Shown piece after piece: positions 15,477 through 59,467 of a stretch of DNA of 64,000 bases; position 1 is the stretch's first letter, and each line of letters opens with the position of its first letter. The position numbers were made by a program, and so were the translations under genes. Location of the stretch: assembly GCA_003252295.1 (NCBI GenBank), contig QKEV01000015.1, forward strand, positions 24,242 to 88,241. The letters run 5' to 3'. This DNA comes from a bacterium (GTDB lineage Bacteria; Patescibacteriota; Minisyncoccia; Phycocordibacterales; UBA12088). The notes beneath the pieces are model-generated. The model was not told the DNA's origin, did not search any database, and was given only the letters and a program-made list of their open reading frames with translations.

Positions 15477-15580
15477 ACTCGTTTAATGGATAACTAAAAA
15501 AGCACTCTTACGAGTGCTTTTTTAGGGGCTTCCAGCTAACCACTAAAAATACAATCGTGTATCTCTAGTATAGGATGCTT

Positions 15581-16030
15581 TTAGCGCATTGCAAGTAGGT
15601 TGTCGTTCCAACAAGCGCTCGATGCGCTCCATGGTTGCGTTCCCTCTTTTTCGTAAAGGTATCGAGCGTACGCGAGGTTGTCCTCTAGGTTCGTAAGCTC
15701 AAGTCCCATGTTTTCTGCCGTTTGCTCGTGGTAGTACTCATTGATCTGCATAACGCCGACATCTAATGGGTTTACTCTTCCACGAGTTACCAAGCCAGTA
15801 GTAGGATCAATGTGAGTAAAATGTGATTCACATCGAGCTACTTCTGCCATGATCGGTATATCTTCAAAATATGAACGTACTTCTTCTTCTACTGTGAGGT
15901 CTGAGTTAGCAAGTGCTATCCCCTTAACCTTTAGTATTTCTCCTTGTGCTGCGACTGTTTGAGTCTGCACATCAGTGTTTAATTCTATCGCAACAGTTGG
16001 TACCGTTAGAAAGGTTGAAGCTGCTGCCAC
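15581..16030 (-). CDS. lytic transglycosylase (SLT)-like domain protein, secreted
   Basis: AEVARCESHFTH…GVMQINEYYH resembles the SLT catalytic E-S…GLMQI motif. The listed start is GTG; an upstream in-frame signal-peptide-like stretch (IKIRLILGTIIAYGVAAAS) has no ATG, so the true start is uncertain. Confidence 0.45.
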   Translation of the reverse strand: MAAASTFLTVPTVAIELNTDVQTQTVAAQGEILKVKGIALANSDLTVEEEVRSYFEDIPIMAEVARCESHFTHIDPTTGLVTRGRVNPLDVGVMQINEYYHEQTAENMGLELTNLEDNLAYARYLYEKEGTQPWSASSACWNDNLLAMR

Positions 16031-16178
16031 TCCGTAAGCGATAATCGTGCCTAAAATAAGCCGTATCTTAATGGTAAGGACCCTGACGTATCAGGACCGC
16101 TTCAAATACTGTACACACGTTTTTTACCGAAAATAAAAAACTGCAGGTGTACTGCAGAAGCAGACACATTATAGCATT

Positions 16179-16203
16179 TTAACCCTTGACAGTCAAGGGT
16201 TAA
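16179..16203 (-). terminator. terminator hairpin for the minus-strand glucokinase/pgi operon
   Basis: TTAACCCTTGAC-A-GTCAAGGGTTAA perfect palindrome. A second hairpin, CTGCAGGTGTACTGCAG, flanked by an A/T-run sits at 16131-16157. Confidence 0.6.
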
Positions 16204-16262
16204 ATGTGGTGTAATGTTAGAAAATGAAGCGAAAAAAAAGCAAATAAATAGGTTTTAAGCCA

Positions 16263-17111
16263 TTATTTGTCTTTACGGATTTGCTGATTAACGTATACCA
16301 TGGCGCCGTAAAGTCCACCCATGTCCTCAAGTTTTGCTTTTTTTACAGCTGGTTTATCAGGATAAATACAGAGGATGTCATCGAGGTGTTCAGCTATCCT
16401 ATCTACCGGTATTGCAGGGTCACCTACTATCATAGAACCACCAAGAACAACTGAATTTGGTGCCCAATGTACGATAGTGTTGTTGAGCATGAAGGCGAGC
16501 CAACGAGAAAGTTGCTCCCAAACCTCTGGTTCCATCACCTCGTATGCTTTTTTATGAAAACGGTGCTCAGTTGCGGTTCCAGAAAGATAGTCTTGTGCGA
16601 CAACTGAATAGCACTCAGGACATGCAGACTTGTCAAAATCAATGATCTGGTGTCCTGGTTCAAAGTTATGGACACCCTTATCAAGATGTCCGTCAACTAT
16701 TCGTGTACCACCTACTCCTGTTGAGACAGTAATATAGGCCATTATTTTATCACCCTTCCCTGCACCATGATGCGCCTCGCCAAGTCCGACAATAGCAGTA
16801 TCATTGCGCATGTATACTGGGCATCCAAGTTTTGTACTCAGGTCCTGTACGAGTGGTTTCCCAGCCCAGTCTGGAAGATTTGGTGAGTTAATGAGCATGG
16901 TGTGTTCACTATCAACCGGACCGGCCACACCACCTCCTGCAGCTTCTATTGGTGTACCATCAGCGAGTTCCAAAATCTTTTCTGTAACAAGCGCTATACC
17001 TTCGTTATAGTCTTTTGGTGTGTCGAACTTAACAGGATCATCAAAACTGTTGCCATCGAGTGATATGACGACACGTGATTTTGTTCCTCCAATATCAAAA
17101 TATGCAAACAT
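16263..17111 (-). CDS. ROK-family sugar kinase (glucokinase-like)
   Basis: MFAYFDIGGTKSR… N-terminal ATPase motif, GLGEAHHGAG, and a Cys/His zinc motif (CPECYSV…H). Confidence 0.8.
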   Translation of the reverse strand: MFAYFDIGGTKSRVVISLDGNSFDDPVKFDTPKDYNEGIALVTEKILELADGTPIEAAGGGVAGPVDSEHTMLINSPNLPDWAGKPLVQDLSTKLGCPVYMRNDTAIVGLGEAHHGAGKGDKIMAYITVSTGVGGTRIVDGHLDKGVHNFEPGHQIIDFDKSACPECYSVVAQDYLSGTATEHRFHKKAYEVMEPEVWEQLSRWLAFMLNNTIVHWAPNSVVLGGSMIVGDPAIPVDRIAEHLDDILCIYPDKPAVKKAKLEDMGGLYGAMVYVNQQIRKDK

Positions 17112-40790: not shown

Positions 40791-40863
40791 TCCGCGGTAG
40801 CTCAGCTGGTAGAGCGATCGGCTGTTAACCGATTGGTCGCAGGTTCGAGTCCTGCCCGCGGAG
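40791..40863 (+). tRNA. tRNA-Asn (anticodon GTT)
   Basis: Cloverleaf read by hand: acceptor TCCGCGG/CCGCGGA; D-arm GCTC-AGCTGGTA-GAGC; anticodon arm ATCGG-CTGTTAA-CCGAT; variable loop TGGTC; T-arm GCAGG-TTCGAGT-CCTGC; discriminator G. CCA is not encoded. Confidence 0.9.
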
Positions 40864-40867
40864 CAAC

Positions 40868-40916
40868 TAGAAAAGCACTATTCTTAGTGCTTTTCTGCGT
40901 ATAAGGGGAACGGGAA
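40868..40916 (+). repeat. copy 1 of a 49-bp direct repeat (contains terminator hairpin AAAAGCACTATTCTTAGTGCTTTT)
   Basis: TAGAAAAGCACTATTCTTAGTGCTTTTCTGCGTATAAGGGGAACGGGAA recurs at 45903-45951 with 3 mismatches. Confidence 0.85.
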
Positions 40917-40940
40917 TAGAACTTTTGTTATACTTTGCGT

Positions 40941-41489
40941 ATGAAAGCACCAAATATTGAAACAAACTCTTACCTAATAAGACCCTTTAAAACTAGCGAT
41001 GCGGAACTATGGCAGAAGTGGGATATAGACCCAGAAGTTCAGGCATTTATGCCTGAACCATTTAATGAAGTGCAAGATATTGAAGAGCAATACAAATACA
41101 TTGAAGAATGTGAAGCTGATGAAGAAGGGTGCTACTGGTCAATTGAGACTAAAAACGGAACTACTATCGGTACGGTGGCACTTACAGAGATCAATGAGTA
41201 TCACAAAATTGCCAACCTTGGTATAGTGATCGGTGATAAAAACCACTGGGGCAAGGGAGTTGCAACTGAGGTAATTACTGCCATAGTTGCACACGCATTT
41301 GAACAACTACATCTTTGCAGGATCAGTGCTGAAGTTGAAGAAGGGAACGTGGGAATGATAAAGGTTTTTAAAAAGGTTGGGTTTAAACAAGATGGACTTT
41401 TGGAATCAGCACGTCTGAAGAATACAAAACGTATCAATGTCCACCATTTTGGTTTTGTTAAACCTTCATGCAAAGTTAAATCAAAATAA
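40941..41489 (+). CDS. GNAT-family N-acetyltransferase (RimJ/RimL-like)
   Basis: …IGTVALTEINEYHKIANLGIVIGDKNHWGKGVATEVITAIVAHAFEQL… acetyl-CoA binding motifs. ATG at 40941; the ORF-track start is TTG at 40935. Confidence 0.8.
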   Translation: MKAPNIETNSYLIRPFKTSDAELWQKWDIDPEVQAFMPEPFNEVQDIEEQYKYIEECEADEEGCYWSIETKNGTTIGTVALTEINEYHKIANLGIVIGDKNHWGKGVATEVITAIVAHAFEQLHLCRISAEVEEGNVGMIKVFKKVGFKQDGLLESARLKNTKRINVHHFGFVKPSCKVKSK

Positions 41490-41590
41490 TCAGATTACTT
41501 TTCCCTCCATCGCCCGAATGAACATCAACTGATTGTACATGCCCGTCATGTACTTTCCGTCACCCAGAATGCTTATAATAGCGTCATGTT

Positions 41591-41632
41591 CGCGGAGCTT
41601 GATAAAGCACGTTCAGAAATGAACGTGCTTTT
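41591..41632 (+). repeat. tRNA-3'-end-like element (CGCGGAGCTTGATAAA) plus hairpin AAAGCACGTTC-AGAAAT-GAACGTGCTTT
   Basis: Same GCGGAGC core as the tRNA-Asn 3' end, again followed by a hairpin and T-run. GCGGAGCTTGATAAA recurs at 44592-44606. Confidence 0.6.
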
Positions 41633-41646
41633 GGTATAGTTTGGGT

Positions 41647-42441
41647 ATGGAAGCGATACTTATAACAATAGGACTATTTGTCAGAACCATACAACTACTA
41701 TTACCTGGTTTCTCAAAAATTGATGTTGCAAATATCTTTATTGCAATCGTTGCTGGATTATTTCTTGCGGGCAAGGCAGGAGCAATATTAGCTTTTCCAT
41801 TTGGTTTTGCCCTAATTATTGCTTTATTTTATAAAAATAAAATTTTACCAACAATTACCGAAGGGACTTTATTTTTATACGCTGTAGTTGCAACATATAT
41901 TGCTGTCAGGGACATTGAGTCATTTTCAGCACTATCTAGCACTTATTTAATATTGCTTTTGTTTCTTTCACTTTACGTACTTGTGGGTTTTTACCTTTGT
42001 GTAACAAAAACGAAAGTGCCATCCTTTTTGCAAATCATTTTAATGGTATTTTTTCTTTCAAATGCAATTTATATCGCGTACCAAAGTAGTCTAGTGTTTC
42101 TCATTACTGATAGTTCACCTTTAACACATTTATTGATTGGATATTTTGGTCTCTATTTTATAAGTCACATTTTGTATATCCTCGCCTTAATCCCACTTCC
42201 TGGGAAACATCAATCTTTTAAAGATAGGATGAAAGAGGTGAGAAAACACGCTCAATTCCTAGAAAAGAAATATTCGGATAAAGATATCAATATTAAAAAT
42301 ACTCTAGGTCTTGTTGCTGTAATTATATTGGCCTTCTCCTATAATTATTTCTACAATGATTGGATTACTAGTGTTGTATTACTCCTTATTATAGGTGGCT
42401 ACTTAGCCGCACCAAATAATTTTAAGTTATTAAGCAAATAA
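41647..42441 (+). CDS. polytopic membrane protein, hypothetical
   Basis: About 7 predicted TM helices. No confident family match. Confidence 0.5.
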   Translation: MEAILITIGLFVRTIQLLLPGFSKIDVANIFIAIVAGLFLAGKAGAILAFPFGFALIIALFYKNKILPTITEGTLFLYAVVATYIAVRDIESFSALSSTYLILLLFLSLYVLVGFYLCVTKTKVPSFLQIILMVFFLSNAIYIAYQSSLVFLITDSSPLTHLLIGYFGLYFISHILYILALIPLPGKHQSFKDRMKEVRKHAQFLEKKYSDKDINIKNTLGLVAVIILAFSYNYFYNDWITSVVLLLIIGGYLAAPNNFKLLSK

Positions 42442-42477
42442 TTTATTTTACTCAATTCAACCTCTATCTTTTTCCAA

Positions 42478-42549
42478 TTCAGAGTTCTGAACTTGTCCAG
42501 CACGGGAGCAATAAGAAAAAACAGTATCGTCTTGATACTGTTTTTTCTT
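42478..42549 (+). repeat. island repeat unit R1 (TTCAGAGTTCTGAACTTGTCCAGCACGGGAGCAAT) plus perfect 16-bp-arm hairpin
   Basis: AGTTCtGAACT palindrome followed by a degenerate tRNA 3' end (CGGGAGCAA), then AAGAAAAAACAGTATC-GTCTT-GATACTGTTTTTTCTT. Homologous units occur at 43297-43332 and 49373-49404. Confidence 0.75.
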
Positions 42550-42680
42550 ATCTCGCTATCATGGTCACGGACTCGAACCTATGGACCACATTTTCAAGGA
42601 GTGGAGCGACCATGAAAATGTAGGATCTCGACCATAGGGAGAGGCGAGTCCTGCTTGTGCGTCGAAACGAAGTGAAGGAG

Positions 42681-42723
42681 TGCCCGCGGAGCAATTGACA
42701 ATACCACTATCTAGTGGTATTGT
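42681..42723 (+). promoter_or_regulatory. tRNA-3'-end copy (TGCCCGCGGAGCAA) fused to a sigma70-like promoter TTGACA-N17-TATTGT with an embedded operator palindrome
   Basis: -35 TTGACA at 42695-42700, -10 TATTGT at 42718-42723, 17-nt spacer. Perfect IR AATACCACT-ATCT-AGTGGTATT at 42700-42721. The AAGGAGG SD and ATG at 42756 follow. Confidence 0.7.
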
Positions 42724-42755
42724 TTGTTTAGTTAGCCTTTTGAAAAGGAGGAAGG

Positions 42756-43172
42756 ATGGAAACAATATATGCGATACTAAAAACATTAAAAAGTTTTGGG
42801 TCAGCAAAAGATGTTCCTTTTAGAAAAAGGTCACCTCAGGAAATCATCAGCTCGGGAGTATTTAGTGGATGTTCTGATGTAGCACTTGCTTTTGCGTATC
42901 TGTGCAAGAGTTCAGAGATAAGGGTTCATATTGTTGATACTTTTGACAAAATAATGTTCTCCAAAACCCTAGGTATGGAAGGTATAACAGGGCATGTGTA
43001 TTGTCAGGTATTTAATTCCGATGACACCTGGGTCATGGTTGACCCAACAGTAGGTGCCGTTGATGTTGATATCTGCTCGGATGGACGTGTCCCTATTGTG
43101 TCATACCTAGACAACAGTAAGCTCCTTTCATATGAAGAACTGTGTTTTATAAAAAGTACCTTTCAGGACTAG
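42756..43172 (+). CDS. transglutaminase-like (Cys-His-Asp) core mini-protein, 138 aa
   Basis: Cys in SGCSDVALAFAYLCK, His in GHVYCQVF and Asp in WVMVDPT, in the order and spacing of the transglutaminase-like cysteine peptidase core. Confidence 0.5.
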   Translation: METIYAILKTLKSFGSAKDVPFRKRSPQEIISSGVFSGCSDVALAFAYLCKSSEIRVHIVDTFDKIMFSKTLGMEGITGHVYCQVFNSDDTWVMVDPTVGAVDVDICSDGRVPIVSYLDNSKLLSYEELCFIKSTFQD

Positions 43173-43173
43173 C

Positions 43174-43215
43174 CCGCCCACAACGAAAACCGTTGGAGGG
43201 CGGTTTTCTTTTTAT
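43174..43215 (+). terminator. rho-independent terminator
   Basis: CCGCCCACAACG…CGTTGGAGGGCGG hairpin followed by TTTTCTTTTTAT. Confidence 0.7.
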
Positions 43216-43296
43216 GCAAAGGAGTTCTGAACTACTCTATTTTTAAATAACTCAAAAAACATACCTTGTTTCAATTCACGTTGTATTCTCTTCCAG

Positions 43297-43360
43297 TTCA
43301 CAGTTCTGAACTTGTCCAGTACGGGGAGCAATTGACAATACCACTATCTAGTGGTATTGT
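43297..43360 (+). promoter_or_regulatory. island repeat unit R3 plus promoter/operator module (second copy)
   Basis: TTCACAGTTCTGAACTTGTCCAGTACGGGGAGCAAT, then TTGACA (43332-43337), N17 containing AATACCACT-ATCT-AGTGGTATT, then TATTGT (43355-43360). Near-identical to 42681-42723. A further AGTTCTGAACT lies at 43213-43223. Confidence 0.75.
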
Positions 43361-43428
43361 TTTGTTTGGCTAAAGTCTGTTCCTACGGTAATTGAATCAC
43401 AAATCATTTAGCATGCTTGGAGGAATAA

Positions 43429-43938
43429 ATGAAAAGTATAGAATATACTGAAATTGCTGGTCATGATAATCTGAATAAGTTTTTAAACGACAGAAATAAA
43501 ATTATCTTAGAATGCAACGATGCGATTCGTAAAGTTGCTAACAAGTTAATTATCAAAGCGAAAGATGAAAGGATTACACTCTGCCGGTTACCTTTGAAAG
43601 CAGTGTTGTTTCGCACAAAAGAAGACCGTGAAGCTAAACGTAATAACACTTTCATCAACTATGGTGAGTATCATGTGGATGAACTTGAACTGTATTACGT
43701 GGAATTTTTTGTACACAACGAAGCAAGAGTTGCTGGCAATATAGGACTCATTATTTCTGGAAAACAGCCAGATCGAACTACAGGTGATTTTAGTTATATT
43801 TGTGGTTTCGAGGATTTTGATTACGTTGATTTGTCATGGGGAAAGAACTGGTTCTTTTTAAACAAAAATGACTATTTTACGTTTAAGGAAGTAGTCTTGA
43901 ATTTTAAAAAGGAACTACCCTCTTGCGTAGTGCAGTAA
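43429..43938 (+). CDS. hypothetical protein (169 aa), island cargo
   Basis: GGAGG SD. No recognisable family. Confidence 0.45.
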   Translation: MKSIEYTEIAGHDNLNKFLNDRNKIILECNDAIRKVANKLIIKAKDERITLCRLPLKAVLFRTKEDREAKRNNTFINYGEYHVDELELYYVEFFVHNEARVAGNIGLIISGKQPDRTTGDFSYICGFEDFDYVDLSWGKNWFFLNKNDYFTFKEVVLNFKKELPSCVVQ

Positions 43939-43952
43939 AATACGTACAAAAA

Positions 43953-43990
43953 ACCTGTCTAGTAGCCTGTCTCTGGACAGGTTACTTTTT
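43953..43990 (+). terminator. rho-independent terminator
   Basis: ACCTGTC…GACAGGT hairpin followed by TACTTTTTAT. Confidence 0.6.
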
Positions 43991-44015
43991 ATATACACGT
44001 TCGAACATCGTCCCA

Positions 44016-44056
44016 CGCTCGGAGCAATTGACAATACAGTAGTAAAATGACATTGT
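44016..44056 (+). promoter_or_regulatory. island unit R4: CGCTCGGAGCAAT plus TTGACA and a degenerate -10
   Basis: Same GGAGCAATTGACAATAC junction as R2 and R3. The downstream -10 region has diverged (CATTGT/TTGTTA). Confidence 0.5.
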
Positions 44057-44125
44057 TAATTTTGGATAATTTCTGTTTTTTACTATGTAATAAATTTAAA
44101 AAACTTTTGAAAACATGAGGTTGTT

Positions 44126-44296
44126 ATGAATCGACGAAGTGACAAGTTTTGTGCTCCACCACCAACATCTCGTTCCTATCCAGGTAAGGGTAGTTATCAG
44201 ATGGAATGTTTAAGGCGCAACGCAATAATCAAACTTCAGTTTGTTGTTGTAGCAGTTGTCATAGTAGCTATTTTGGTTACCCTGCCTTTTTTGTAA
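44126..44296 (+). CDS. 56-aa small protein with C-terminal TM helix (MNRRSDKFCAPPPTSRSYPGKGSYQMECLRRNAIIKLQFVVVAVVIVAILVTLPFL)
   Basis: Below the ORF cutoff. GAGG SD 5 nt upstream. Tail-anchored topology. Confidence 0.35.
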   Translation: MNRRSDKFCAPPPTSRSYPGKGSYQMECLRRNAIIKLQFVVVAVVIVAILVTLPFL

Positions 44297-44528
44297 GTTT
44301 TGGTCGTTTGTATGTTTGTAGACAGAAACTATTAAGCCGCTTAGGAAGATGTAATCCAAGCGGCTTTAATTTGTAAAATATAACTGAATAATGGGGTCTG
44401 ACCCCGTTTCATAAAAGGTGACTGACCCCTTTTTTCCTTGCTGTTTCTCTCTAACAAGGACCAGGAAAATTTTCTGGCCCTTTTGCGTTACAAGTGTCTT
44501 AGGGGTAAACCGCTTTGTTTAATCAATG

Positions 44529-44584
44529 AATGAACATGCCATGCCTGCCCGGCACCCTTTGTGGTGTCTCGGGGCATGTTCATT
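44529..44584. repeat. perfect 12-bp-arm inverted repeat (AATGAACATGCC…GGCATGTTCATT) with a 32-nt GC-rich loop
   Basis: Lies in the 350-nt non-coding stretch 44297-44647, which also holds hairpins at 44334-44366 and 44393-44436. The tRNA-3'-like TGCGGAGCTTGATAAA follows at 44591. Confidence 0.6.
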
Positions 44585-44647
44585 GGATGCTGCGGAGCTT
44601 GATAAAAAAACATATAAAATAAATGTTATTGGTGTATTATAGGATAT

Positions 44648-44776
44648 ATGAAATTTGAAGAAGTGCATTACCAAGAGCCGGTTCCAGAAATGGAAAGTTT
44701 TGAAAAAGTTGACGACTTTCTTGAAAATGAAGAAGGGGTCCTTGCAACTCTTCGTAAAAAAACAAAAAAGAGGTGA
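44648..44776 (+). CDS. 42-aa acidic small protein (MKFEEVHYQEPVPEMESFEKVDDFLENEEGVLATLRKKTKKR)
   Basis: Protein-like frame. Its stop TGA sits inside the GAGGTGA SD of the next ORF, consistent with translational coupling. Preferred over the overlapping K-rich frame that the ORF track starts at 44655. Confidence 0.35.
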   Translation: MKFEEVHYQEPVPEMESFEKVDDFLENEEGVLATLRKKTKKR

Positions 44777-44780
44777 TAAC

Positions 44781-44948
44781 TTGGAAGCAGTAAATGTAGA
44801 ACACAAAGAAGATTTAGTTCTTGGTTTTGTTGGACCTCTAACTGATGAATTTTCTTCACAGATGCAACCGCACAATGCAGAAAATTTTGGCTGCGTAGAC
44901 TGTATTGATTGTGTATGTGATGTAGGTCCTTGCGATTGCGACACTTAA
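44781..44948 (+). CDS. 55-aa Cys/Asp-rich peptide (…SQMQPHNAENFGCVDCIDCVCDVGPCDCDT), candidate modified-peptide precursor or metal-binding peptide
   Basis: TTG start 5 nt after the GAGGTG SD. Six Cys alternating with Asp in the last 18 residues, preceded by a leader-like region. Confidence 0.4.
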   Translation: MEAVNVEHKEDLVLGFVGPLTDEFSSQMQPHNAENFGCVDCIDCVCDVGPCDCDT

Positions 44949-45032
44949 GTCGCTTAAAAGTTAATCTCAACATACTGGCCATTTTCTTTGGCCAGTATTA
45001 TTTTATAATCAAATAAACATTTTAAAAAGATA

Positions 45033-45722
45033 ATGAGCAAGGTCATATTTGGCACTAATAAAGACAAAGATTTCAGAAACCATCTTATACAGCTGAGATG
45101 GCGAAATAAAACTGGTTTTACGTATTCTCCAGCAGAAAGTGAGTACTTTGATTCTCTGGAGAGATGTAAGGATGAGCTTGAGCAATGGAAGCTGTTTGAA
45201 GATTACTCACGTGAGTATTATTTGGAGGACAATAAACAGACAATTAATTCTGTTTTAAGTTATTTTCAAACATTGTGGAATAATGTTGAAGAAGTGTATG
45301 TTAAAAAAATGGAAGAAATGCACAATAAAGTATTTCCTTACAAAACAGTTTATGGTTATTTGTCTACGTCGCCAGGTGGCTGGGGCTTCAATTTAAATAA
45401 AAAAAACCCTTGGTTTGCATGTCCCAATAAAAAGAATGACAAGTTCCTAAAAGTTGCAATGCATGAACTCATGCATGGTTTTTTTATTGAATATTTTAGA
45501 GATGACTTAAAAGAAAAATACCGTTTAACTGACAACAAACTTTGGGATATTCAAGAGTCATTAACGGTGCTTCTAAATATTGAATTAGGTGATATTCTGC
45601 CTCACAAAGACTTGGGGTATCCACAACACAAAGAGTTACGCGAAGAAGTTAAGTCGGTATGGTTAGAGACAAGTGATATTGATGAGGTCCTGCGACGTGC
45701 AAGTCAATTTACTAAAGGGTAA
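45033..45722 (+). CDS. HExxH-motif protein, putative zinc metallopeptidase-like (229 aa)
   Basis: AMHELMHGFF is the only recognisable motif. No signal peptide. An A8 homopolymer lies in the CDS at 45399-45406. Confidence 0.5.
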   Translation: MSKVIFGTNKDKDFRNHLIQLRWRNKTGFTYSPAESEYFDSLERCKDELEQWKLFEDYSREYYLEDNKQTINSVLSYFQTLWNNVEEVYVKKMEEMHNKVFPYKTVYGYLSTSPGGWGFNLNKKNPWFACPNKKNDKFLKVAMHELMHGFFIEYFRDDLKEKYRLTDNKLWDIQESLTVLLNIELGDILPHKDLGYPQHKELREEVKSVWLETSDIDEVLRRASQFTKG

Positions 45723-45902
45723 TACCTTTGACTATTTTGTTTATACAAACGAAATGTGTTTGTAATTATTAAAAACTAATTTTAGTTGTTCTCTAACGAT
45801 AAATTTTGTTGTTGTAATGCTGATGCAACAGGACTTCTTTCCAGTTTTCTTTCCCATTCTACCCAGTTCACGTTTATAAAGGTGCTTAGGTGTTGGAGCC
45901 CT

Positions 45903-45951
45903 TAGAAAAGCACTATTCTTAGTGCTTTTCTGCGTATAGGGGGAACAGGAT
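45903..45951 (+). repeat. copy 2 of the 49-bp direct repeat
   Basis: 46 of 49 positions identical to 40868-40916. Preceded by a GGAGCC tRNA-end-like remnant. Confidence 0.85.
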
Positions 45952-46059
45952 TTGAACCATACTAAATACTATATAGTAAATATAACAATATTATGCTAAA
46001 ACACAGGTAGAAAAATAAATGACCACAATACCTAATATCAAATATGGAGGTTGTTGCAT

Positions 46060-47232
46060 ATGCAAACTGATCAAGTTTTGTCGGCACTGTACGAGTGTTT
46101 TCGTGGGAAGGGTTGGAGGTTATATACCTGCACTACATGTAATAATCTCATTTTCTCAAAAAATGCGAAAACACTTTGTTGGAGAAGGAAAGAATGTGGG
46201 CAAGAAAAAAAGTTTTTGTCATTACCAAAACAGAAAGCGATGGTAGTTCCGGGGCAAATCAAGGATGTAATAGAAAAAGCTGCTACAAAAAAGGGTTACA
46301 ATCGCGTGGAAAGTATTCCACTTACCGCTAACCATGGGAAAACAGATTTAATTATTGCTGGTGTACAGCTGTATAACGATGTAATTCATGGGAAAGCAAT
46401 ACAATCTTGCTTTCCTGACCGTTGTGTAATATCTCAACCGTGTGTACGGATGCAGTTTGCTGATAAGGTTGGTAAAGTAGATGGTATTTCGACCGCATTT
46501 GTAAACACATGTACCGAGCACGTTGGAGCTACGGTTGTCGAACATGCATTTGCCGTGGATTTTTGGCTAGACGTGCTTTCATGCCTTGGTTTGCATGTGT
46601 GTGATGTGTCGCTGGTATATCGTACAAAGAAACGAAATTGGGGGACAGGTGATTTTCTTTCCCATGATTTATTTTTTATGTATGGTGATTTAGAACTGGG
46701 TGATGCTTCCTATGCAGTTGTCCCAACTAGGTGTGCAGGTGGTTCAGGGGTATTGCAGATTAGTGACGTAGGCTTTGGGGTAGAACGAATCGGATGGGCA
46801 ATCAATAAAACTGATACGTACTATGACGTGTTACAACCATGGGACATGCAGTATACGACAGAAGTTAACGATCTGTACCGTACACTTACGTTACTTGCTA
46901 TGACCGGTGTTAAACCTGGACCAAAAGGTGCAGGGTTACAGTTTCGTCGCCTTGCAAAACAATTATACCTTCTGACTCCAAACATCTTTTCATTTGGTCT
47001 TGTAAGTTACTATTTTCGGTATTGGGGTTCGTTTACGACATGTCTTTGTGGATTAGAAGTTTCTTCTTCTGTAATTTCTCGCGAGTATGATAGGTTGCGT
47101 AACAATGGGATCGCAAGTAACAATAATTGGCCTGCCCCAAAAAATGATGAGAGTACAGAAGAATACCTTGAAAGAATGGTGTATAGTAAAATAGTAACTC
47201 CCAGTGAGTTGCGTAAGATGTACACACCATGA
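46060..47232 (+). CDS. alanyl-tRNA-synthetase catalytic-core paralog (class IIc fold) with N-terminal Cys-rich zinc-ribbon-like segment; lacks tRNA-recognition, editing and C-Ala domains
   Basis: Collinear with the AlaRS N-domain. VIEKAATKKGYNRVESIPL…DLIIAGVQ compares with F…KGH.V.SS.LVP.NDPTLLFTNAGM. SQPCVRMQF compares with TSQ.C.RAGG. ISDVGFGVERIGWAINKTDTYYDVL compares with VDTGMGLERLAAVLQ…SNYD.DLF (motif 3). About 390 aa against about 870 aa for AlaRS. ATG at 46060 with a GGAGG SD. Confidence 0.6.
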   Translation: MQTDQVLSALYECFRGKGWRLYTCTTCNNLIFSKNAKTLCWRRKECGQEKKFLSLPKQKAMVVPGQIKDVIEKAATKKGYNRVESIPLTANHGKTDLIIAGVQLYNDVIHGKAIQSCFPDRCVISQPCVRMQFADKVGKVDGISTAFVNTCTEHVGATVVEHAFAVDFWLDVLSCLGLHVCDVSLVYRTKKRNWGTGDFLSHDLFFMYGDLELGDASYAVVPTRCAGGSGVLQISDVGFGVERIGWAINKTDTYYDVLQPWDMQYTTEVNDLYRTLTLLAMTGVKPGPKGAGLQFRRLAKQLYLLTPNIFSFGLVSYYFRYWGSFTTCLCGLEVSSSVISREYDRLRNNGIASNNNWPAPKNDESTEEYLERMVYSKIVTPSELRKMYTP

Positions 47233-47918
47233 AAAAACAAAAACTAAAGCTATACTTGTCTGGGGGTGGTGACGAAACACAGTCATTCGCCCTCGACAAG
47301 CTTTTTTTTACTTCAATTCCTGAAAATGGAAAGGTTTTGTATATACCTATAGCTTTACGTGGTCACAAACTCTTTTTAAATGCACATATGTGGTTTTCTG
47401 GTGTAGTAAAGAAACATGGTCGTGATGATATACAGGTTGTGCGTTGTGATGATGTTGACACAATAACAATTAAGAAAATATCTCTGTATGATGCTGTGTA
47501 TATAGGTGGAGGAAATACTTGGTCACTTATAAAAGAAGTATCTGAAGCTGGTTTTGATGAAGTGTTAAAAAAATATATAACAGAAGGAGGGGTGGTATAC
47601 GGCGGGAGTGCTGGTGCAATTCTTCTTGGCACTTGTATTGATACAAGTGATGATGAAAATGTTGTGAAATGGAATAATATAAATGGATTAGATCTTATTT
47701 CTCCTTACTCAGTGGTTTGTCACTATACGGAAGTCATGGAGAAACGATATTCTGGTTGGGCAAACAAACATGGACCTATTATTTGCATTCCTGAAAATGC
47801 AGGGATGTACACAGAAGGTAACAGTTTGGTAAATTGTGGTAACGGTATGATAACCGTTTTTGATACTTCTGGAAAAAAAATAGAATACTCTGCAAATGAG
47901 TGCTTAATGTTCGAATAA
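47229..47918 (+). CDS. peptidase S51 family (dipeptidase E / cyanophycinase-like)
   Basis: VYIGGGNTWSLI, GGSAGAILL (Ser nucleophile) and a downstream His, collinear with PepE. Start overlaps the AlaRS-like stop (ATGA). Confidence 0.75.
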   Translation: MKKQKLKLYLSGGGDETQSFALDKLFFTSIPENGKVLYIPIALRGHKLFLNAHMWFSGVVKKHGRDDIQVVRCDDVDTITIKKISLYDAVYIGGGNTWSLIKEVSEAGFDEVLKKYITEGGVVYGGSAGAILLGTCIDTSDDENVVKWNNINGLDLISPYSVVCHYTEVMEKRYSGWANKHGPIICIPENAGMYTEGNSLVNCGNGMITVFDTSGKKIEYSANECLMFE

Positions 47919-47923
47919 ACTGT

Positions 47924-47952
47924 AAAAGCACTTCGGGTATCGAAGTGCTTTT
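47924..47952. terminator. bidirectional terminator
   Basis: AAAAGCACTTCG-GGTAT-CGAAGTGCTTTT between the convergent S51 gene and the SAM-synthetase gene. Confidence 0.8.
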
Positions 47953-47968
47953 ATTGTCAAACCAGTTC

Positions 47969-49225
47969 TCAGTAAAGGATGCATTTACCTTCAATGATTT
48001 CCTGAGAAAGAACAGAAAGGTTTTTCATAGTATCAATGTAAATATCTTTCACTGTATCTTCGTGCCTCCCGAGTAGTTTGGGTCTGTTTATTTCTATAGA
48101 AGCCATCCAAGGATCATCCAGGTTTCTGCCCATCTGGGATGTGATAAACACCTTACATTCTGTGTTTATTGCATTGAATACATTGTCCGCAATTCTTTGT
48201 GCTGCTGCTGTGTACAGTTTTCCAACATGGTAAATAGGATTTTTGCCACAACATGCCTCCATACTCATGTTTCTTGTAAACGGGATAATGCCGTTATGTC
48301 GGTTCCCTCGACCTACCACACCTTCGTCACCGCTTTCGATGGCACTTCCTATGGCAGTTAAGTAAAAATCTTGACGAGCCGCATTATCACGAGTATTTAA
48401 CTCAACTGAGTAGTTGTAGTACGGATACATTGTCTTTGCGTGTCCCAGTATTATCTCTGAAACCTCTTGAAGAGATTTGCGATAAAAAACCAGGGAGTTT
48501 GTATACGCAGCGACAAATGGTATACATGCGGTGATTTTTACGTTTCTGCCATTTCTTACTGACATAACCTTGATGTCAGTACCAACATAAGGATGCTCCT
48601 TTTTAAAACCCTTAAATTCGTTGAGTTGGTTTTCGATAGCAATGGTAAGTAGTTCTATTTCGCTTAACGGAGCATACGCCACAGCAGTTGAAGTGTCGTT
48701 GGAGCGGAGATCATTGTCGTGATAACGGGCAAATTTTATGTTCGGTACTGTAAAAAAATGCCCGCGTTCATTTTTTGTATTACCGTCCTTGCTATGTACA
48801 ACCCCCGGTCCGGGTGCCATATGAGTGTTGTCAATAATTGTTAGCCATTGTTCAACGTCAAGGAGCGGCATTACAGCTTTAAAGTGTTTCTTTGCAGCAT
48901 TGCTCGCGATATCAAGATAAGGTACCTCGCGTCCTTCAAAGTCTTTAGTAAAACGACAGTTCAGGTATAGGTGTATCGGACGTTCCATAAATCCTTTACC
49001 AAACTGAACGTGTGAGGCTCCTCCAGCAAGTGCAATTTTGTCCACCATGTGTCGTAACACCACACCGTGTTCATTAAGAGTGTATTGTGAATATGCCTGT
49101 GAAATTTTTTCAGCAATTGTGTCACAGAGTGTGTCTGGGTGACCTATTCCCTTTCGTTCCACCACCTCAAACGGTGTTTCTGAGCAAAGTGTGTTTTGTT
49201 GAGCAATAACTGTAAAATTGTTCAT
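47969..49225 (-). CDS. S-adenosylmethionine synthetase, archaeal type (MAT)
   Basis: ERKGIGHPDTLCDTIAE N-terminal motif and overall collinearity with the archaeal AdoMet synthetase family, not bacterial MetK. Confidence 0.8.
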   Translation of the reverse strand: MNNFTVIAQQNTLCSETPFEVVERKGIGHPDTLCDTIAEKISQAYSQYTLNEHGVVLRHMVDKIALAGGASHVQFGKGFMERPIHLYLNCRFTKDFEGREVPYLDIASNAAKKHFKAVMPLLDVEQWLTIIDNTHMAPGPGVVHSKDGNTKNERGHFFTVPNIKFARYHDNDLRSNDTSTAVAYAPLSEIELLTIAIENQLNEFKGFKKEHPYVGTDIKVMSVRNGRNVKITACIPFVAAYTNSLVFYRKSLQEVSEIILGHAKTMYPYYNYSVELNTRDNAARQDFYLTAIGSAIESGDEGVVGRGNRHNGIIPFTRNMSMEACCGKNPIYHVGKLYTAAAQRIADNVFNAINTECKVFITSQMGRNLDDPWMASIEINRPKLLGRHEDTVKDIYIDTMKNLSVLSQEIIEGKCILY

Positions 49226-57184: not shown

Positions 57185-59467
57185 ATGAATAAACTAGCAC
57201 CTCAAAAGATACTTTTTCTTGCTGGTATTGTCAGTGCCCTGATCCTTGTTGGATCTATCGGGTACGTAAATCACGAAAAGGTTAAGCAGCAGGAGTATGT
57301 TGCTTCTGTTATTAACTCACAGTTGGCAAAAGACAAAACAACCTCTGATGACGGGAAGGTATTTCCAACAGTAAGTCTTGAAGGACGGGCACATCTAGAT
57401 GATGCTGTTGCACGTCTTGGTGATAAGTTGCCAGAAGTTGCAGCTTGGTACGGCTACTCACCTGCCAGTCTCAGGACCATGTTAAAAAACGATCACTCAC
57501 TATGGCTTGATAAAGAAGCGCATTTGTATTACGCGGAAGATGTCCCAGAAGGTATAGAAACAGTGAGTTCAGCTACAGAAAGTATAGCGATTGGTTCACT
57601 CTATCCACTTGAGGATACTTTTAAGCTTCACAGTAATCCTGATGCAAAAAATGTTATCTATCTTGATTTTGATGGAATGCTTATTTCAGGCACCATGTGG
57701 AACACAAGTGACAACTCAGGAGAGGATATTGATGCTCCGGCTTGGGATATTGATGGTGATACGTCTACATTTGGTACCACTGAACGTGAGCGCATACAAC
57801 GGATTTGGCAACGAGTTGCTGAAGATTACGCACCGTTTAATGTGGATGTCACAACAGAACAACCTCCTCTTGATAGAATTCAACGGACTTCAACTTCGGA
57901 TGAGTACTACGGTACTGTTGCTCTCATCAGCCCGATTTCTAGCTACTTTGGCAACTACGGAGGTATTGCATATGTTGGTATATACAACATGACAAATAAC
58001 ATCTTTTATCAACCAGCACTAGTTTTTTCTGAGAAACTACAGAACAATGAAAAGTATATTGCGGAGGCTATATCACATGAGGTTGGTCATAATTTTGGTC
58101 TTTCACATGATGGAACAACTGATGGAACTAGTTACTATGGTGGTTCAGGAGTATGGGCGCCTATCATGGGCAGTAGTTACTACAAAAAAATAACTCAATG
58201 GAGTAAGGGAGAGTATCCACTTGCAAACAATACTCAAGATGATATCTCCATCATTGCTTCTAAGGGTCCTTCAGTTCTTGTTGATGATTGCGGCAGCACA
58301 CTTTCATCAGCGTGTATTCTTGGTTACAGTAGTGGTTCTGTGTTTGCAGATGGACTTATCGAACGTGCAGGTGATACTGATTTCTACTCATTTATGAGTG
58401 ATGCAGGATCTATGTCAATCACAGTAACCATGCACCCATCTGCTCCAAACCTAAATGCTCGAGTAAAACTTCTTGATGGAAGTGGAAATACTATTGCGAC
58501 TGCTTCTGATAGCTATACTTCGGTGGTACTTACTGCAACCGTAGAGAGTGGCACCTACTACATATCAGTACAGGGTGTTGCTGGAGCTGATTTTACTAAC
58601 TATGCGAGTTTGGGTCAGTACCAGATAAGTGGTACGGTAAACTACACAGGTAGTATGCCTCCAGTGGCAACAGCATCAGCAAATGTTACCTCAGGAAAAG
58701 CACCACTCACTGTTGATTTTTCAAGTGATGGTTCGTATGATCCTGATGGCCTCATTTCTTCTTACACTTGGTCCTTCGGTGATGGAGCAACTTCAAATGA
58801 AGTGAATCCAACACATATATTTACAGCAAGCGGTACCTACTCTGTGTCGTTAACCGTAACTGATGAGGAAGGTTTCAGTAGCTCAGACTCTGTTACTGTT
58901 TCAGTTACCAACAACGCTCCTGTTGCTGAAGTGACTGCGTCTCCTATACGTGGAAATATTCCTCTTGAAGTAGCTTTCGATGGTACTGACTCATATGACG
59001 TGGATGGAACGATTGTTGCATATGATTGGGTCTTTGGTGATGGTATGCGAGGTTCTGGTATGACGATTACACACACCTATGAAGCAGCAGGAACTTTCGT
59101 AGCGCAGCTTACGGTTACCGATAATGAGGGTGTTTCAAACTCTGCACCAGTAACCATTTCTGTTGTTGACCTGAATGCTGTTGCTGCTCCGACAGACCTG
59201 GCTGCTGTAAATGAAAGAAAGACAAGCAACGTTAACCTTACCTGGACTGACAATGCAGATAACGAGACGAGTTATGAGGTGTACCGTGCACTCTACGTAC
59301 GGAAAGCGACACCGAGCTACACGCTCATGGCTACACTTTCTGCTGACAGTGAGAGCTACAGTGAGACAACTCCGGGCAGTGGAACGTACCTCTACTACGT
59401 ACGTGCTGTGAATGCTACTGCTCAAACTGAAGCAGTGTCTGAAACTGTTAGTGTCAGAATAAAGTAA
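57185..59467 (+). CDS. secreted metzincin-type zinc metalloprotease with tandem PKD domains and a C-terminal FN3-like domain
   Basis: Signal/TM. HEVGHNFGLSHDG (HExxHxxGxxH). Two PKD repeats (…WSFGDGATS…; …WVFGDGMRG…). Terminator at 59491-59520. Confidence 0.8.
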   Translation: MNKLAPQKILFLAGIVSALILVGSIGYVNHEKVKQQEYVASVINSQLAKDKTTSDDGKVFPTVSLEGRAHLDDAVARLGDKLPEVAAWYGYSPASLRTMLKNDHSLWLDKEAHLYYAEDVPEGIETVSSATESIAIGSLYPLEDTFKLHSNPDAKNVIYLDFDGMLISGTMWNTSDNSGEDIDAPAWDIDGDTSTFGTTERERIQRIWQRVAEDYAPFNVDVTTEQPPLDRIQRTSTSDEYYGTVALISPISSYFGNYGGIAYVGIYNMTNNIFYQPALVFSEKLQNNEKYIAEAISHEVGHNFGLSHDGTTDGTSYYGGSGVWAPIMGSSYYKKITQWSKGEYPLANNTQDDISIIASKGPSVLVDDCGSTLSSACILGYSSGSVFADGLIERAGDTDFYSFMSDAGSMSITVTMHPSAPNLNARVKLLDGSGNTIATASDSYTSVVLTATVESGTYYISVQGVAGADFTNYASLGQYQISGTVNYTGSMPPVATASANVTSGKAPLTVDFSSDGSYDPDGLISSYTWSFGDGATSNEVNPTHIFTASGTYSVSLTVTDEEGFSSSDSVTVSVTNNAPVAEVTASPIRGNIPLEVAFDGTDSYDVDGTIVAYDWVFGDGMRGSGMTITHTYEAAGTFVAQLTVTDNEGVSNSAPVTISVVDLNAVAAPTDLAAVNERKTSNVNLTWTDNADNETSYEVYRALYVRKATPSYTLMATLSADSESYSETTPGSGTYLYYVRAVNATAQTEAVSETVSVRIK

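Follow-up and report, generated by a model that had tools for sequence, protein, structure and literature searches.

Why would a bacterium of the Patescibacteriota keep an alanyl-tRNA synthetase (AlaRS) shortened to 390 aa, with its gene overlapping that of a peptidase-like hydrolase? The question is raised by a 64,000-nt stretch of contig QKEV01000015.1 (hereafter, the window), for which an earlier note had proposed a truncated AlaRS paralogue that acts, together with an S51-family neighbor, on a non-tRNA acceptor.

The AlaRS-like protein and its S51 partner

The AlaRS-like protein (here AlaL) is encoded on the forward strand at 46060..47232; the 390-aa ORF originally described was confirmed. 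We preferred the ATG at 46060 over a TTG at 46051 because a Shine-Dalgarno sequence, GGAGG, is found on the same strand at 46046..46050, 9 nt ahead of the former. By sequence comparison, AlaL is a diverged AlaRS paralogue of the archaeal type. As the earlier note had recognized, it aligns with the AlaRS aminoacylation domain. Its catalytic fold is of class II and of the AlaRS type, and the arginines of motifs 2 and 3 are present. It scores below the cut-offs of PF01411 (19.7 versus 30.3 bits), TIGR00344 (30.2 versus 457) and TIGR03683 (39.7 versus 744.7).

The catalytic core (46237..46845, forward strand), delimited by alignment of the family and by alignment to 2ztg and 3wqy, contains the motifs 'AGVQ' (Q103), 'QPCVR' with the motif-2 residue R130 (nt 46447-46449) and 'GFGVER' with the motif-3 residue R243 (nt 46786-46788). 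Also invariant or nearly so are F147, W194, G214 and D236 (nt 46765-46767), the last being the equivalent of Asp235, which binds the alpha-amino group in E. coli AlaRS. In an alignment of 89 diverse family members, Arg130, Arg243, Asp236, Phe147, Gln103 and Gln126 did not vary, while Gly238 was kept in 86/89 and Trp194 in 85/89. The alignment also confirmed that positions of the Ala-adenylate pocket are altered, and most family members have Asp at the position of E. coli AlaRS N212. Compared with the solved AlaRS sequences that we aligned, 'FEM' is changed to 'FVN' and 'DTG.GLER' to 'SD(I/V)GFGLER', and the 'GPCxE'-type loop is lost; these three motifs are common to all of those solved sequences and to AlaRSs in general.

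Outside the core, AlaL has neither an editing domain nor a C-Ala domain, and two earlier claims about its ends needed correction. The Cys-rich N-terminus, taken for an extra segment, is the normal zinc-ribbon region of archaeal AlaRS: its four-Cys, zinc-ribbon-like motif (46129..46197, forward strand) comprises C24, C27, C40 and C46, which align with 'RKRCPKCGKHFW..CGDPPC'. A subfamily of about 329 aa from Bacilli is devoid of this motif. Nor has everything for tRNA recognition been lost, because residues ~267-390 form a helical domain of six helices (46858..47229, forward strand) whose start aligns with the tRNA-recognition (Mid1) helices of AlaRS (A. fulgidus 339-392; E. coli 234-321), the 'SN.G.G' loop being part of the alignment. 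The Asn of the corresponding 'NKG.G' loop is common in the family and is replaced by Pro in the window protein; this may be the Asn position of the Asn/Asp pair that reads G3:U70, and no equivalent of Asp450 can be assigned from the sequence. Neither the window nor 1.24 Mb of related loci, reaching up to 10 kb on either side of the hits, contained a second AlaRS-like ORF. On indirect grounds, we consider it unlikely that this gene is the only alaS of the organism.

The TGA stop of AlaL shares letters, in the overlap ATGA, with the start codon of a 229-aa ORF (47229..47918, forward strand), as previously reported. Its product matches PF03575 with 80.6 bits (cut-off, 23.9), which substantiates its assignment to S51, and can be aligned to PepE (1fy2) and to 7c9b. 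The catalytic triad of Ser127 (nt 47607-47609), His165 (nt 47721-47723) and Glu189 (nt 47793-47795) is conserved in, respectively, 73/73, 73/73 and 70/73 homologues. Both genes are adjacent in 34-36 of 41 loci, the pairwise distances of their products correlate (r=0.94), and a natural AlaL–S51 fusion exists (P0102); together with the ATGA overlap, these data support the proposal that they constitute a functional pair. We also found fusions of S51 to a GT-B glycosyltransferase in two loci (L066 and L068). Both kinds of fusion argue for consecutive steps in one pathway; the suggestion that S51 acts in trimming or immunity received no specific support. Downstream, a hairpin with a 13-bp stem (47923..47953) occupies the space between two convergent stop codons and is a candidate bidirectional terminator.

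A three-gene unit with a methionine adenosyltransferase

The second of these stop codons belongs to an archaeal-type methionine adenosyltransferase (MAT) of 418 aa, encoded on the reverse strand (47969..49225) and convergent to the pair. It matches PF01941 with 343 bits (cut-off, 27) but stays below the cut-off of the NCBIfam equivalog (319.5 versus 481). Taking the residue roles established for the archaeal enzyme TkMAT (PMC3853416), the catalytic His29 and the ribose-binding Asp177 and Asp280 are conserved. Conversely, the ligands of the methionine carboxylate, His62 and Asn64 in TkMAT, are replaced by R58 and M60 (nt 49046-49054), a substitution present in 48 of 71 module MATs, including that of the window. 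The gating loop of module MATs, in turn, has an insertion of 11-16 aa (at about nt 48740-48787 in the window) and is devoid of the canonical Asp-Leu pair (Asp144/Leu145 of TkMAT). In one genome (L103), a gene for bacterial MetK lies at a distance of 4.4 kb from that of the module MAT, indicating that the latter enzyme is dedicated to the module.

To quantify linkage, we gathered a non-redundant set of 86 loci, drawn from Patescibacteria, DPANN archaea and reduced Bacilli, and restricted counts to the 33 loci with at least 4 kb of flank on each side. A MAT gene was found within 5 kb of the AlaL gene in 33/33 loci. For S51, this held in 29/33 and, in the form of a fusion, in one more; for a seryl-tRNA synthetase (SerRS) gene, it held in 12/33, across three phyla. 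This linkage of MAT, S51 and AlaL is maintained through several different gene orders. As a reverse check, three MAT homologues were picked from contigs outside our AlaL list, and all three adjoin an AlaL–S51 pair. AlaL, S51 and MAT are thus a conserved three-gene unit in tiny-genome bacteria and archaea, with MAT as the most constant partner of AlaL. The neighborhood survey that had been recommended hence bore out the recurrence of S51 (29-30/33), but not that of the Cys/Asp-rich peptide gene, and brought up MAT and SerRS, neither of which had been anticipated. We found no description in the literature of the AlaL family or of the gene trio. Grouping at 50% identity divides the family into no fewer than 264 clusters, and those whose source names we saw were all called 'hypothetical'. 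The family is rare and scattered: a pattern scan located it in 63 of 185,579 species genomes.

Further fusions join AlaL to a class I SAM-binding domain of the methyltransferase fold (P0199 and P0213) and to a C-terminal domain of 280 aa with no Pfam or PDB match (P0181). The larger loci contain accessory genes, such as those for inositol-3-phosphate synthase (8 loci; mycothiol INO1 model, E=1.5e-115), GT4-like transferases (about 13 loci), radical-SAM(/SPASM) enzymes (8-9 loci), an IolG-like dehydrogenase with an aminotransferase, a polysaccharide deacetylase and PIG-L. In L042, the genes form a five-gene operon in the order MIPS-MAT-AlaL-S51-GT, and some members of the family are located in sugar, cyclitol and NRPS-type clusters. 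Aminotransferases were confined to loci without S51 (4/6 versus 0/49; Fisher p=4e-5), but phylogeny confounds this complementarity, since the loci devoid of S51 come largely from a single subclade. A RelA/SpoT gene heads the operon in Bacilli, and some loci have housekeeping surroundings (SerRS, L1/L11, NusG, Rel). The pairwise distances of AlaL run parallel to those between SerRS sequences (r=0.97), suggesting vertical inheritance; the SerRS neighbors look like ordinary housekeeping copies, and their co-transfer with the module was not supported, as they are only 33-41% identical between phyla. No carrier protein (PP-binding) appeared among the Pfam-annotated neighbors in loci L001-L006, L070, L071, L073, L078 and L100-L104, contrary to the analogy drawn earlier with ligases that charge such acceptors, and no dedicated tRNA gene recurred near the module in 60 loci. 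The window itself contains the minimal three-gene form, with no glycosyltransferase, inositol gene, SAM-consuming enzyme or SerRS beside it.

The module had been placed in a tRNA-adjacent island. That island is an array of cassettes bounded by a 63-nt direct repeat, which contains an exact core of 35 nt where chance would yield 0: the first copy (40860-40922) begins in the 3' end of a tRNA-Asn gene and the second (45895..45957, forward strand) closes the array 100 nt upstream of AlaL. The module lies outside the array because the second copy marks its end, and the GC content of AlaL and MAT (41%) is close to that of the flanks (42-44%), as compared with 36% in the cassettes; membership of the island was thus ruled out. 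The proposed connection with a peptide gene fared no better, since the att-like second copy of the repeat lies in between, neither that gene nor the island recurs in more than 100 related loci, and the cassette proteins, among them those of the 97-aa Cys/Asp-rich ORF and a 229-aa ORF, lack counterparts there. As for other origins, PADLOC gave no match to a defence system for the three module proteins or the cassette proteins, and no relative was found among viral contigs. Rfam matches were limited to the tRNA-Asn, and a sub-threshold Phe leader (E=0.21) was dismissed, leaving no candidate for riboswitch or leader control.

Possible roles of the module

A non-translational role, as the earlier note had envisaged, is the best reading of AlaL. 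From its homology and fold, its conserved catalytic residues, the linkage of the three genes, the fusions and the accessory genes, we favor, with a probability of roughly 40%, that AlaL is a catalytically competent aminoacyl ligase working with an S51 amidohydrolase and a dedicated MAT supply of SAM. AlaL would activate a small amino acid as the aminoacyl-adenylate, the likeliest by size being Ser, Ala or Gly since AlaL preserves most of the AlaRS pocket, and would pass it to a non-tRNA amine. A compound derived from inositol or an amino sugar is the probable acceptor in the fuller operons, an extrapolation from a minority of loci, given that the three-gene form of the window has no GT or inositol genes. 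S51, as obligate partner, would most likely free the acceptor amine by deacylation or else proofread the product, and the MAT would supply the SAM that a putative step in the same pathway consumes stoichiometrically. Such logic would resemble that of mycothiol and bacillithiol, in which a GT4 glycosyltransferase and a deacetylase are followed by an ATP-dependent ligase derived from an aminoacyl-tRNA synthetase (aaRS). The Mid1-like domain with its AlaRS-type loop, the recurrent SerRS and the RelA/SpoT of Bacilli suggest, nevertheless, that a tRNA may still be involved.

A simple supply of SAM is not an obvious cause of the 100% MAT linkage, of a MAT kept beside MetK, or of the altered ligands and gating loop. 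In a rather unlikely variant, the AlaL enzyme would use SAM directly as a substrate and not as a general cofactor, with S51 as the matching hydrolase or proofreader. Three forms are possible: SAM could be the acceptor, yielding aminoacyl-SAM, modified either at ribose hydroxyls that mimic tRNA A76 or, with SAM in the adenylate pocket in the manner of AcmF, at the methionine amine; SAM could itself provide the amino-acid moiety for activation and ligation; or the remodelled MAT could adenosylate the product of the ligase.

It is rather unlikely that the module operates like AcmD, AcmE and AcmF, with AlaL moving the aminoacyl group from the aminoacyl-tRNA of SerRS, or of another aaRS, to an adenosine-type acceptor. 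In such a scheme, the adenylate pocket would hold SAM or a SAM-derived nucleoside made by way of the MAT, and S51 would be the counterpart of AcmE, removing the aminoacyl group. There is a precedent: AcmF takes alanine from the Ala-tRNA produced by AcmD to sulfamoyl-adenosine and AcmE hydrolyses the product (PMC12945691). These three roles could be filled here, too, by an aaRS, by a truncated AlaRS-like protein and by a hydrolase. The scheme would also account for both the SerRS adjacency and the obligate MAT, and for AlaL the Mid1-like domain with its loop is retained. However, AcmF lost residues for the activation of ATP and alanine (N219Q, D232E), whereas the activation residues of the AlaL family are invariant; the SerRS genes are of housekeeping type, a dedicated tRNA gene is missing, and about 60% of the loci, including the window, have no SerRS. 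Less probable still is the activation of an amino acid derived from SAM (azetidine-2-carboxylate, 1-aminocyclopropane-1-carboxylate, or homoserine or its lactone), for which the MAT would give the stoichiometric precursor. This would leave S51 without a role, and the core module holds no candidate SAM cyclase or lyase, although it would explain why the MAT linkage is constant and why a second MAT occurs next to MetK. Known azetidine-2-carboxylate synthases share the class I methyltransferase fold, and the SAM-binding domain fused to two AlaL members has as best PDB match the TYW2-type aminocarboxypropyl transferase MJ1557 (E=3.5e-4), but this match spans the generic SAM-binding motif only, too little to assign an AzeJ-like identity. 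AlaRS accommodates azetidine-2-carboxylate itself in its active site and activates it (PMC5741666).

We deem it very unlikely that AlaL is a working mini-AlaRS for translation, be it the sole one in these reduced genomes or one half (alpha) of a split enzyme, with S51 as a trans-acting deacylase that replaces editing. AlaL misses every curated AlaRS cut-off by a wide margin, the AlaRS motifs are changed, and the family is rare and scattered, being also present in Bacilli, which as a rule have a canonical alaS. The occurrence of other members in sugar, cyclitol and NRPS-type clusters and the transferase fusions do not fit translation either, and the MAT link would be left unexplained. Nonetheless, mini-AlaRSs do exist, in Tupanvirus (PMC10036535) and as AlaRS-alpha of N. 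equitans, and AlaL retains the catalytic residues and the Mid1-like domain, as well as, in some loci, housekeeping surroundings and an apparently vertical inheritance alongside SerRS. Lastly, the obligate linkage would agree with a non-catalytic regulatory or sensor subunit that ties MAT activity to amino-acid status, as HisZ does for HisG, but this is highly improbable: the catalytic arginines and the amino-group-binding Asp are strictly conserved, S51 would have no role, and the best 150 of the 264 representatives (E<=1e-30) include no AlaL–MAT fusion, yet fusions to S51, SAM-binding and 280-aa domains occur.

Significance and comparison with known systems

The unannotated AlaL family and its module span the divide between bacteria and archaea and reside in the organisms with the smallest genomes, namely Patescibacteria, DPANN and RF39-like gut Bacilli. 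Because these organisms discard almost all biosynthesis yet keep the module, largely vertically, it likely matters for their physiology or their dealings with hosts. To our knowledge, AlaL would be only the second non-translational paralogue of the AlaRS catalytic core, after AcmF. That it is paired without exception with a remodelled SAM synthetase dedicated to the module, even where a normal MetK is nearby, points towards SAM-linked chemistry that has gone unrecognised, for which the module offers a concrete, cloneable system. Were any of the SAM-substrate forms true, it would represent a new kind of SAM chemistry and CPR, DPANN and reduced gut Bacilli would possess a private archaeal-type MAT for it.

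Several known proteins share parts of this design. S51 has the fold and Ser-His-Glu triad common to peptidase E (PepE) and cyanophycinase, but falls below the equivalog cut-offs for both (63.5 versus 156 bits and 28 versus about 126-126.6 bits, respectively) and is fused or coupled to AlaL or a glycosyltransferase. SerRS-like amino acid:carrier-protein ligases, AsnA, EpmA/PoxA and GluQRS are likewise class II or truncated aaRS cores with an acceptor other than the tRNA 3' end, although they derive from other parent synthetases and none is linked to MAT or S51. The enzymes of Tupanvirus and Nanoarchaeum equitans are true synthetases for tRNA-Ala and display the canonical motifs of AlaRS, unlike AlaL, with its failed AlaRS models, changed motifs and MAT/S51 module.

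The ligases MshC and BshC, with MshA/BshA (GT4), MshB/BshB (deacetylase) and Ino1, offer a parallel in logic, since the amine that a deacetylase exposes on the GT4 product receives an amino acid from an ATP-dependent ligase of aaRS descent, and the L042 operon has an inositol-phosphate synthase too. MshC is not homologous to AlaL, because it is a class I CysRS paralogue. Additionally, the deacetylases of these pathways are metal-dependent LmbE/PIG-L enzymes and not S51, the pathways have no MAT, and most module loci, including the window, have no GT and inositol genes.

The closest comparison is with AcmF, from ascamycin biosynthesis, which is likewise derived from AlaRS and truncated to the aminoacylation and tRNA-recognition part, the recognition domain being matched only partly in AlaL. 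AcmF is also non-translational and is encoded with an aaRS (AcmD, an AlaRS) and a hydrolase (AcmE), its acceptor being adenosine-based (PMC12945691). In contrast to its lost activation residues, D236, R130, R243 and F147 are invariant in the AlaL family. AcmF is of bacterial type, from Streptomyces, and is partnered by an alpha/beta hydrolase, whereas AlaL is of archaeal type, with an N-terminal Zn ribbon, occurs in Patescibacteria, DPANN and reduced Bacilli, and is partnered by S51. The obligate archaeal-type MAT further sets the module apart from the AcmF system.

An AlaRS-core family of archaeal type

The window ORF at 46060..47232 (+), with a GGAGG Shine-Dalgarno sequence 9 nt upstream, belongs to a new, unannotated family of AlaRS cores that is firmly tied to a dedicated SAM synthetase of archaeal type (methionine adenosyltransferase, MAT) and an S51 hydrolase in CPR (Patescibacteria), DPANN archaea and reduced Bacilli. 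Its 390-aa product scored weakly with Pfam tRNA-synt_2c (19.7 bits; cut-off 30.3), while the NCBIfam archaeal AlaRS model matched residues 12-142 (E=1.8e-10) and A. fulgidus AlaRS matched colinearly over residues 52-261. The A1 profile, built from 29 family members, matched A. fulgidus AlaRS over residues 11-268 (E=8.4e-19), P. horikoshii AlaRS (E=6.6e-12) and, over residues 234-321, E. coli AlaRS fragments. From the NCBIfam, A. fulgidus and A1 matches, the protein is, judged by its sequence, a real AlaRS derivative of archaeal type, in agreement with the kinship proposed in the earlier note.

Neither an editing domain nor a C-Ala domain is present, and the second half of the tRNA-recognition domain is probably missing as well. 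However, the earlier view that everything serving tRNA recognition is lost did not hold: residues 267-390 comprise six helices, and the start of this helical domain ('D…R…L…GV…NKG.GLQFRR') aligns to the opening helices of the domain by which AlaRS recognises tRNA, with the 'SN.G.G' loop included. Nor is the N-terminal Cys-rich segment an extra; its motif (C24, C27, C40, C46) aligns to 'RKRCPKCGKHFW…CGDPPC' of archaeal AlaRS and is inherited.

Among 89 sequences from all lineages, Q103, Q126-P127, R130 (motif 2), F147, G214, D236, G240-x-E242-R243 (motif 3) and W322 were invariant, and T95, N149, W169, W194, G238 and F239 were at least 93% conserved. From the alignments, we take D236 to be Asp235 of E. 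coli AlaRS, which holds the alpha-amino group, and G238, W194 and R130 to be its Gly237, Trp170 and Arg69, respectively. 'FEM' of all solved AlaRS sequences aligned is replaced by 'FVN', and the Cys-containing 'W..GG…GPC.E' loop of the solved AlaRSs by 'WGTG.F…ELF'; in most members Asp takes the place of Asn212, and the Val214 position is Ala, Ser or Thr. To our knowledge, AlaRSs in general also have the motifs from which the family departs. Conserved catalytic residues together with changed pocket motifs make the enzyme look like an active adenylate former, whose pocket would be altered yet still small.

A word-indexed search returned 94 clusters, every one named 'hypothetical protein', and when 1.84 billion representatives were searched exhaustively with an HMM, 431 passed E≤1e-10, of which 264 also passed E≤1e-30. 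None of the top 150 of the 264 exceeded 674 aa, and nearly all were 320-440 aa long. A Bacilli subfamily (~329 aa, without the Zn ribbon) adds 133 further clusters from gut and rumen MAGs. Scanning one genome per species yielded 63 loci, from Patescibacteria, DPANN archaea, uncultured Bacilli, 'Tenericutes' and Clostridia. There were no relatives in the viral contigs searched and no match to PADLOC models, and a literature search found no description of the family.

Linkage of the AlaRS-like, S51 and MAT genes

In the window, the ATG of the S51 gene (47229..47918, +; 229 aa) is overlapped by the AlaRS-like TGA stop as ATGA, as noted earlier, and the MAT gene (47969..49225, -; 418 aa) is convergent to both, with a 13-bp hairpin between it and the S51 gene. 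We surveyed neighbourhoods by tblastn and ORF clustering in 104 loci (1.24 Mb total), across which the AlaRS-like, S51 and archaeal-type MAT (PF01941) genes travel together. Linkage was counted in the 86 non-redundant loci, split by flank length. Where flanks were at least 4 kb on both sides (33 loci), MAT lay within 5 kb in 33, S51 in 29 plus one S51-glycosyltransferase fusion, and SerRS in 12; with at least 2.5 kb on both sides (41 loci), the counts were 39, 34 plus two fusions, and 16. The finding stands and gains interest beyond the two-gene pair of the earlier note: the association with S51 holds (29/33), but the real unit has three genes, with MAT in 33/33.

Gene order is AlaRS-like>S51> <MAT in Paceibacteria, the window included, MAT>AlaRS-like>S51> in Bacilli, many DPANN and other CPR, and AlaRS-like>MAT> or MAT>…>AlaRS-like in other clusters; S51 is inverted in some DPANN loci. 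Linkage has thus outlasted rearrangement, indicating that it is under selection. Starting from MAT gave the same link: the best 120 MAT homologues were 52-60% identical, and many lay on contigs whose lengths match those of AlaRS-like hits; three on contigs absent from the AlaRS-like list were all (3/3) flanked by S51, SerRS and an unannotated ORF of ~390 aa (327-394 aa as called). Pairwise distances of the AlaRS-like proteins correlated with those of S51 (r=0.94), MAT (r=0.83) and SerRS (r=0.97), which fits mostly vertical co-inheritance, the correlations being inflated by common phylogeny. In several Patescibacteria (loci L100, L101, L102 and L005) the module sits amid mobile or defence-type genes (recombinases, N6/N4 methylase, SLFN/AlbA_2, RhuM, SMODS nucleotidyltransferase), yet its distances track SerRS.

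Natural fusions link the module proteins mutually and to other enzymes: AlaRS-like–S51 (protein P0102), S51–GT-B glycosyltransferase (loci L066 and L068), AlaRS-like–class I SAM-binding (methyltransferase-fold) domain (P0199 and P0213) and AlaRS-like with a 280-aa domain that has no Pfam or PDB match (P0181). No fusion to MAT was seen among the best 150 of the 264 AlaRS-like representatives.

The earlier note had placed the pair inside a tRNA-adjacent island and linked it to a Cys/Asp-rich peptide gene nearby; neither link was supported. Four small cassettes in an array (40860-45957), inserted at the 3' end of tRNA-Asn (40791-40864; the one tRNA gene that ARAGORN found in the window), fill the 5 kb up to the module. 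The array is bounded by the two copies of a 63-nt direct repeat (40860-40922 and 45895-45957), of which 35 nt match exactly. Each cassette junction carries 'CGGAGCAA', a remnant of the tRNA 3' end, and then a hairpin; at the internal junctions (~42688, 43325 and 44021), 'CGGAGCAATTGACAATAC' is repeated with a hairpin. A second repeat, of 55 nt, lies at 42452/43271. The cargo comprises a GNAT (40935-41489), a membrane protein (41641-42441), a transglutaminase-like protein (42756-43172), the 97-aa Cys/Asp-rich ORF (44655-44948), a 169-aa ORF and a 229-aa ORF with a weak zincin-like match; no integrase was seen in 40860-45957. GC content is 36.4% in the cassettes, 41.0% in the AlaRS-like gene and 41.4% in MAT, near the 42-44% of the flanks. 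Because the module begins 100 nt past the last repeat and no cassette gene recurs with it in related loci, the Cys/Asp-rich ORF is unrelated to it.

Elsewhere in the window, a 922-aa protein (27525-30293, -) matches HerA/DUF87, TrwB/VirD4-type coupling protein and TraG-D_C and is perhaps an ATPase for conjugation or DNA uptake. Another protein, of 760 aa (57185-59467, +), combines two PKD domains with a reprolysin-like metallopeptidase domain, so that a protease that is secreted or sits at the surface is probable.

Partner enzymes and accessory genes

The module MAT is dedicated and remodelled. That of the window aligns over its whole length to M. jannaschii MAT (E=2.5e-66), keeping catalytic H29 and the ribose-binding Asp residues D177 and D280. 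In T. kodakarensis MAT, His62 and Asn64 are the methionine-carboxylate ligands (PMC3853416); these positions are Arg/Met in 48 of 71 module MATs (CPR and Bacilli; window nt 49046-49054, minus strand), the remainder retaining 'LHHNFDK'. All 71 carry a gating-loop insertion of 11-16 residues, with R154 and F158 conserved (window 48740-48787, minus strand), that none of the five solved archaeal MATs has; the loop also does not retain its Asp-Leu pair. In a reduced Bacilli genome (L103, a 935-kb contig) with the operon Rel>MAT>AlaRS-like>S51, an ordinary bacterial MetK (S-AdoMet_synt_N/M/C, 'GHPDKTCD') is encoded at 15429-16583, 4.4 kb from the module MAT, which is there a second, specialised copy. 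Two unrelated SAM synthetase types thus occur within one small genome.

The S51 identity of the 229-aa protein was confirmed: it clearly passed the Pfam model, and the triad Ser127-His165-Glu189 is conserved. Its nearest solved relatives are PepE enzymes, and it scores under the PepE and cyanophycinase equivalog cut-offs. One Bacilli locus (L104) has two additional S51 paralogues 9 kb upstream.

Fuller operons include inositol-3-phosphate synthase (MIPS) in eight loci (Pfam E=6e-27; NCBIfam mycothiol_INO1 E=1.5e-115), L042 having the order MIPS>MAT>AlaRS-like>S51>GT, and GT4-like transferases 3' of the S51 or AlaRS-like gene in ~13. An IolG-like dehydrogenase with an aminotransferase occurs in L070/L076 and L073, DegT in L071 and L077, a polysaccharide deacetylase in L071, and a PIG-L (MshB/BshB-family) deacetylase gene directly after S51 in L103. 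Radical-SAM or SPASM genes were found in L046, L069, L071, L072, L073, L077, L091 and L094; the co-directional cluster in L073 (3997-11170) combines radical SAM/SPASM, a methanogen-type SerRS (tRNA_bind_4 N-domain), MAT, DegT aminotransferase, IolG-like dehydrogenase and AlaRS-like genes. Aminotransferases were confined to S51-less loci (4/6 vs 0/49, Fisher p=4e-5), a test that overstates independence because these loci are phylogenetically related. A RelA/SpoT homologue heads the operon in Bacilli, the order in reduced Bacilli (L104 7268-13791; L103 7284-11709; L053-L055, L057) being RelA/SpoT homologue>MAT>AlaRS-like>S51(>SerRS>HAD phosphatase).

An NRPS condensation-domain neighbour was found at one locus (L078, 3451-8585), where the AlaRS-like gene precedes a stand-alone condensation-domain protein and a TauD-type dioxygenase, with no MAT or S51 within the available flank. 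This suggests that the AlaRS-like protein of L078 is an amino-acid-activating enzyme of a peptide-like pathway.

Possible function and known systems

The best-supported reading, with a probability of about 0.4, is that the AlaRS-like protein is a non-translational aminoacyl ligase working with S51 and a private MAT. The enzyme would form the adenylate of a small amino acid and pass the amino acid to an amine, which would be on a cyclitol or amino sugar where context is informative; S51 would act as an amidohydrolase exposing or proofreading the acceptor, and the MAT would feed a SAM-dependent step. We rate it no higher because the window has the three-gene core without sugar genes, and plain SAM supply explains the MAT findings poorly.

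The main rival, which we consider unlikely, resembles AcmD/AcmE/AcmF (AlaRS, hydrolase and truncated AlaRS-like transferase of ascamycin biosynthesis): the adjacent SerRS would supply aminoacyl-tRNA as donor, and the acceptor would be a nucleoside of SAM type sitting in the adenylate pocket. Such a scheme explains SerRS, MAT and the retained helical domain, but the activation residues, being preserved, speak against it. It is less probable still that the enzyme activates a small amino acid derived from SAM, even if one such compound, azetidine-2-carboxylate, fits AlaRS (PMC5741666). A true mini-AlaRS, with S51 as trans-editor, is very improbable given the altered motifs, the failure in curated models, the rarity and scatter of the family, its presence in Bacilli and its biosynthetic surroundings, and a HisZ-like regulatory role is hardly credible.

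The re-use of aaRS paralogues for aminoacyl transfer is known already; an AlaRS-like variant with a link to SAM is not. As a scheme, the ligase proposed here has its parallel in how mycothiol and bacillithiol are made (GT4, deacetylase, aaRS-derived ligase, Ino1), although the module enzymes share no homology with MshB or MshC of the mycothiol pathway. The one truncated AlaRS-like enzyme characterised so far, AcmF, no longer has its activation residues (PMC12945691), whereas the family described here has kept them.
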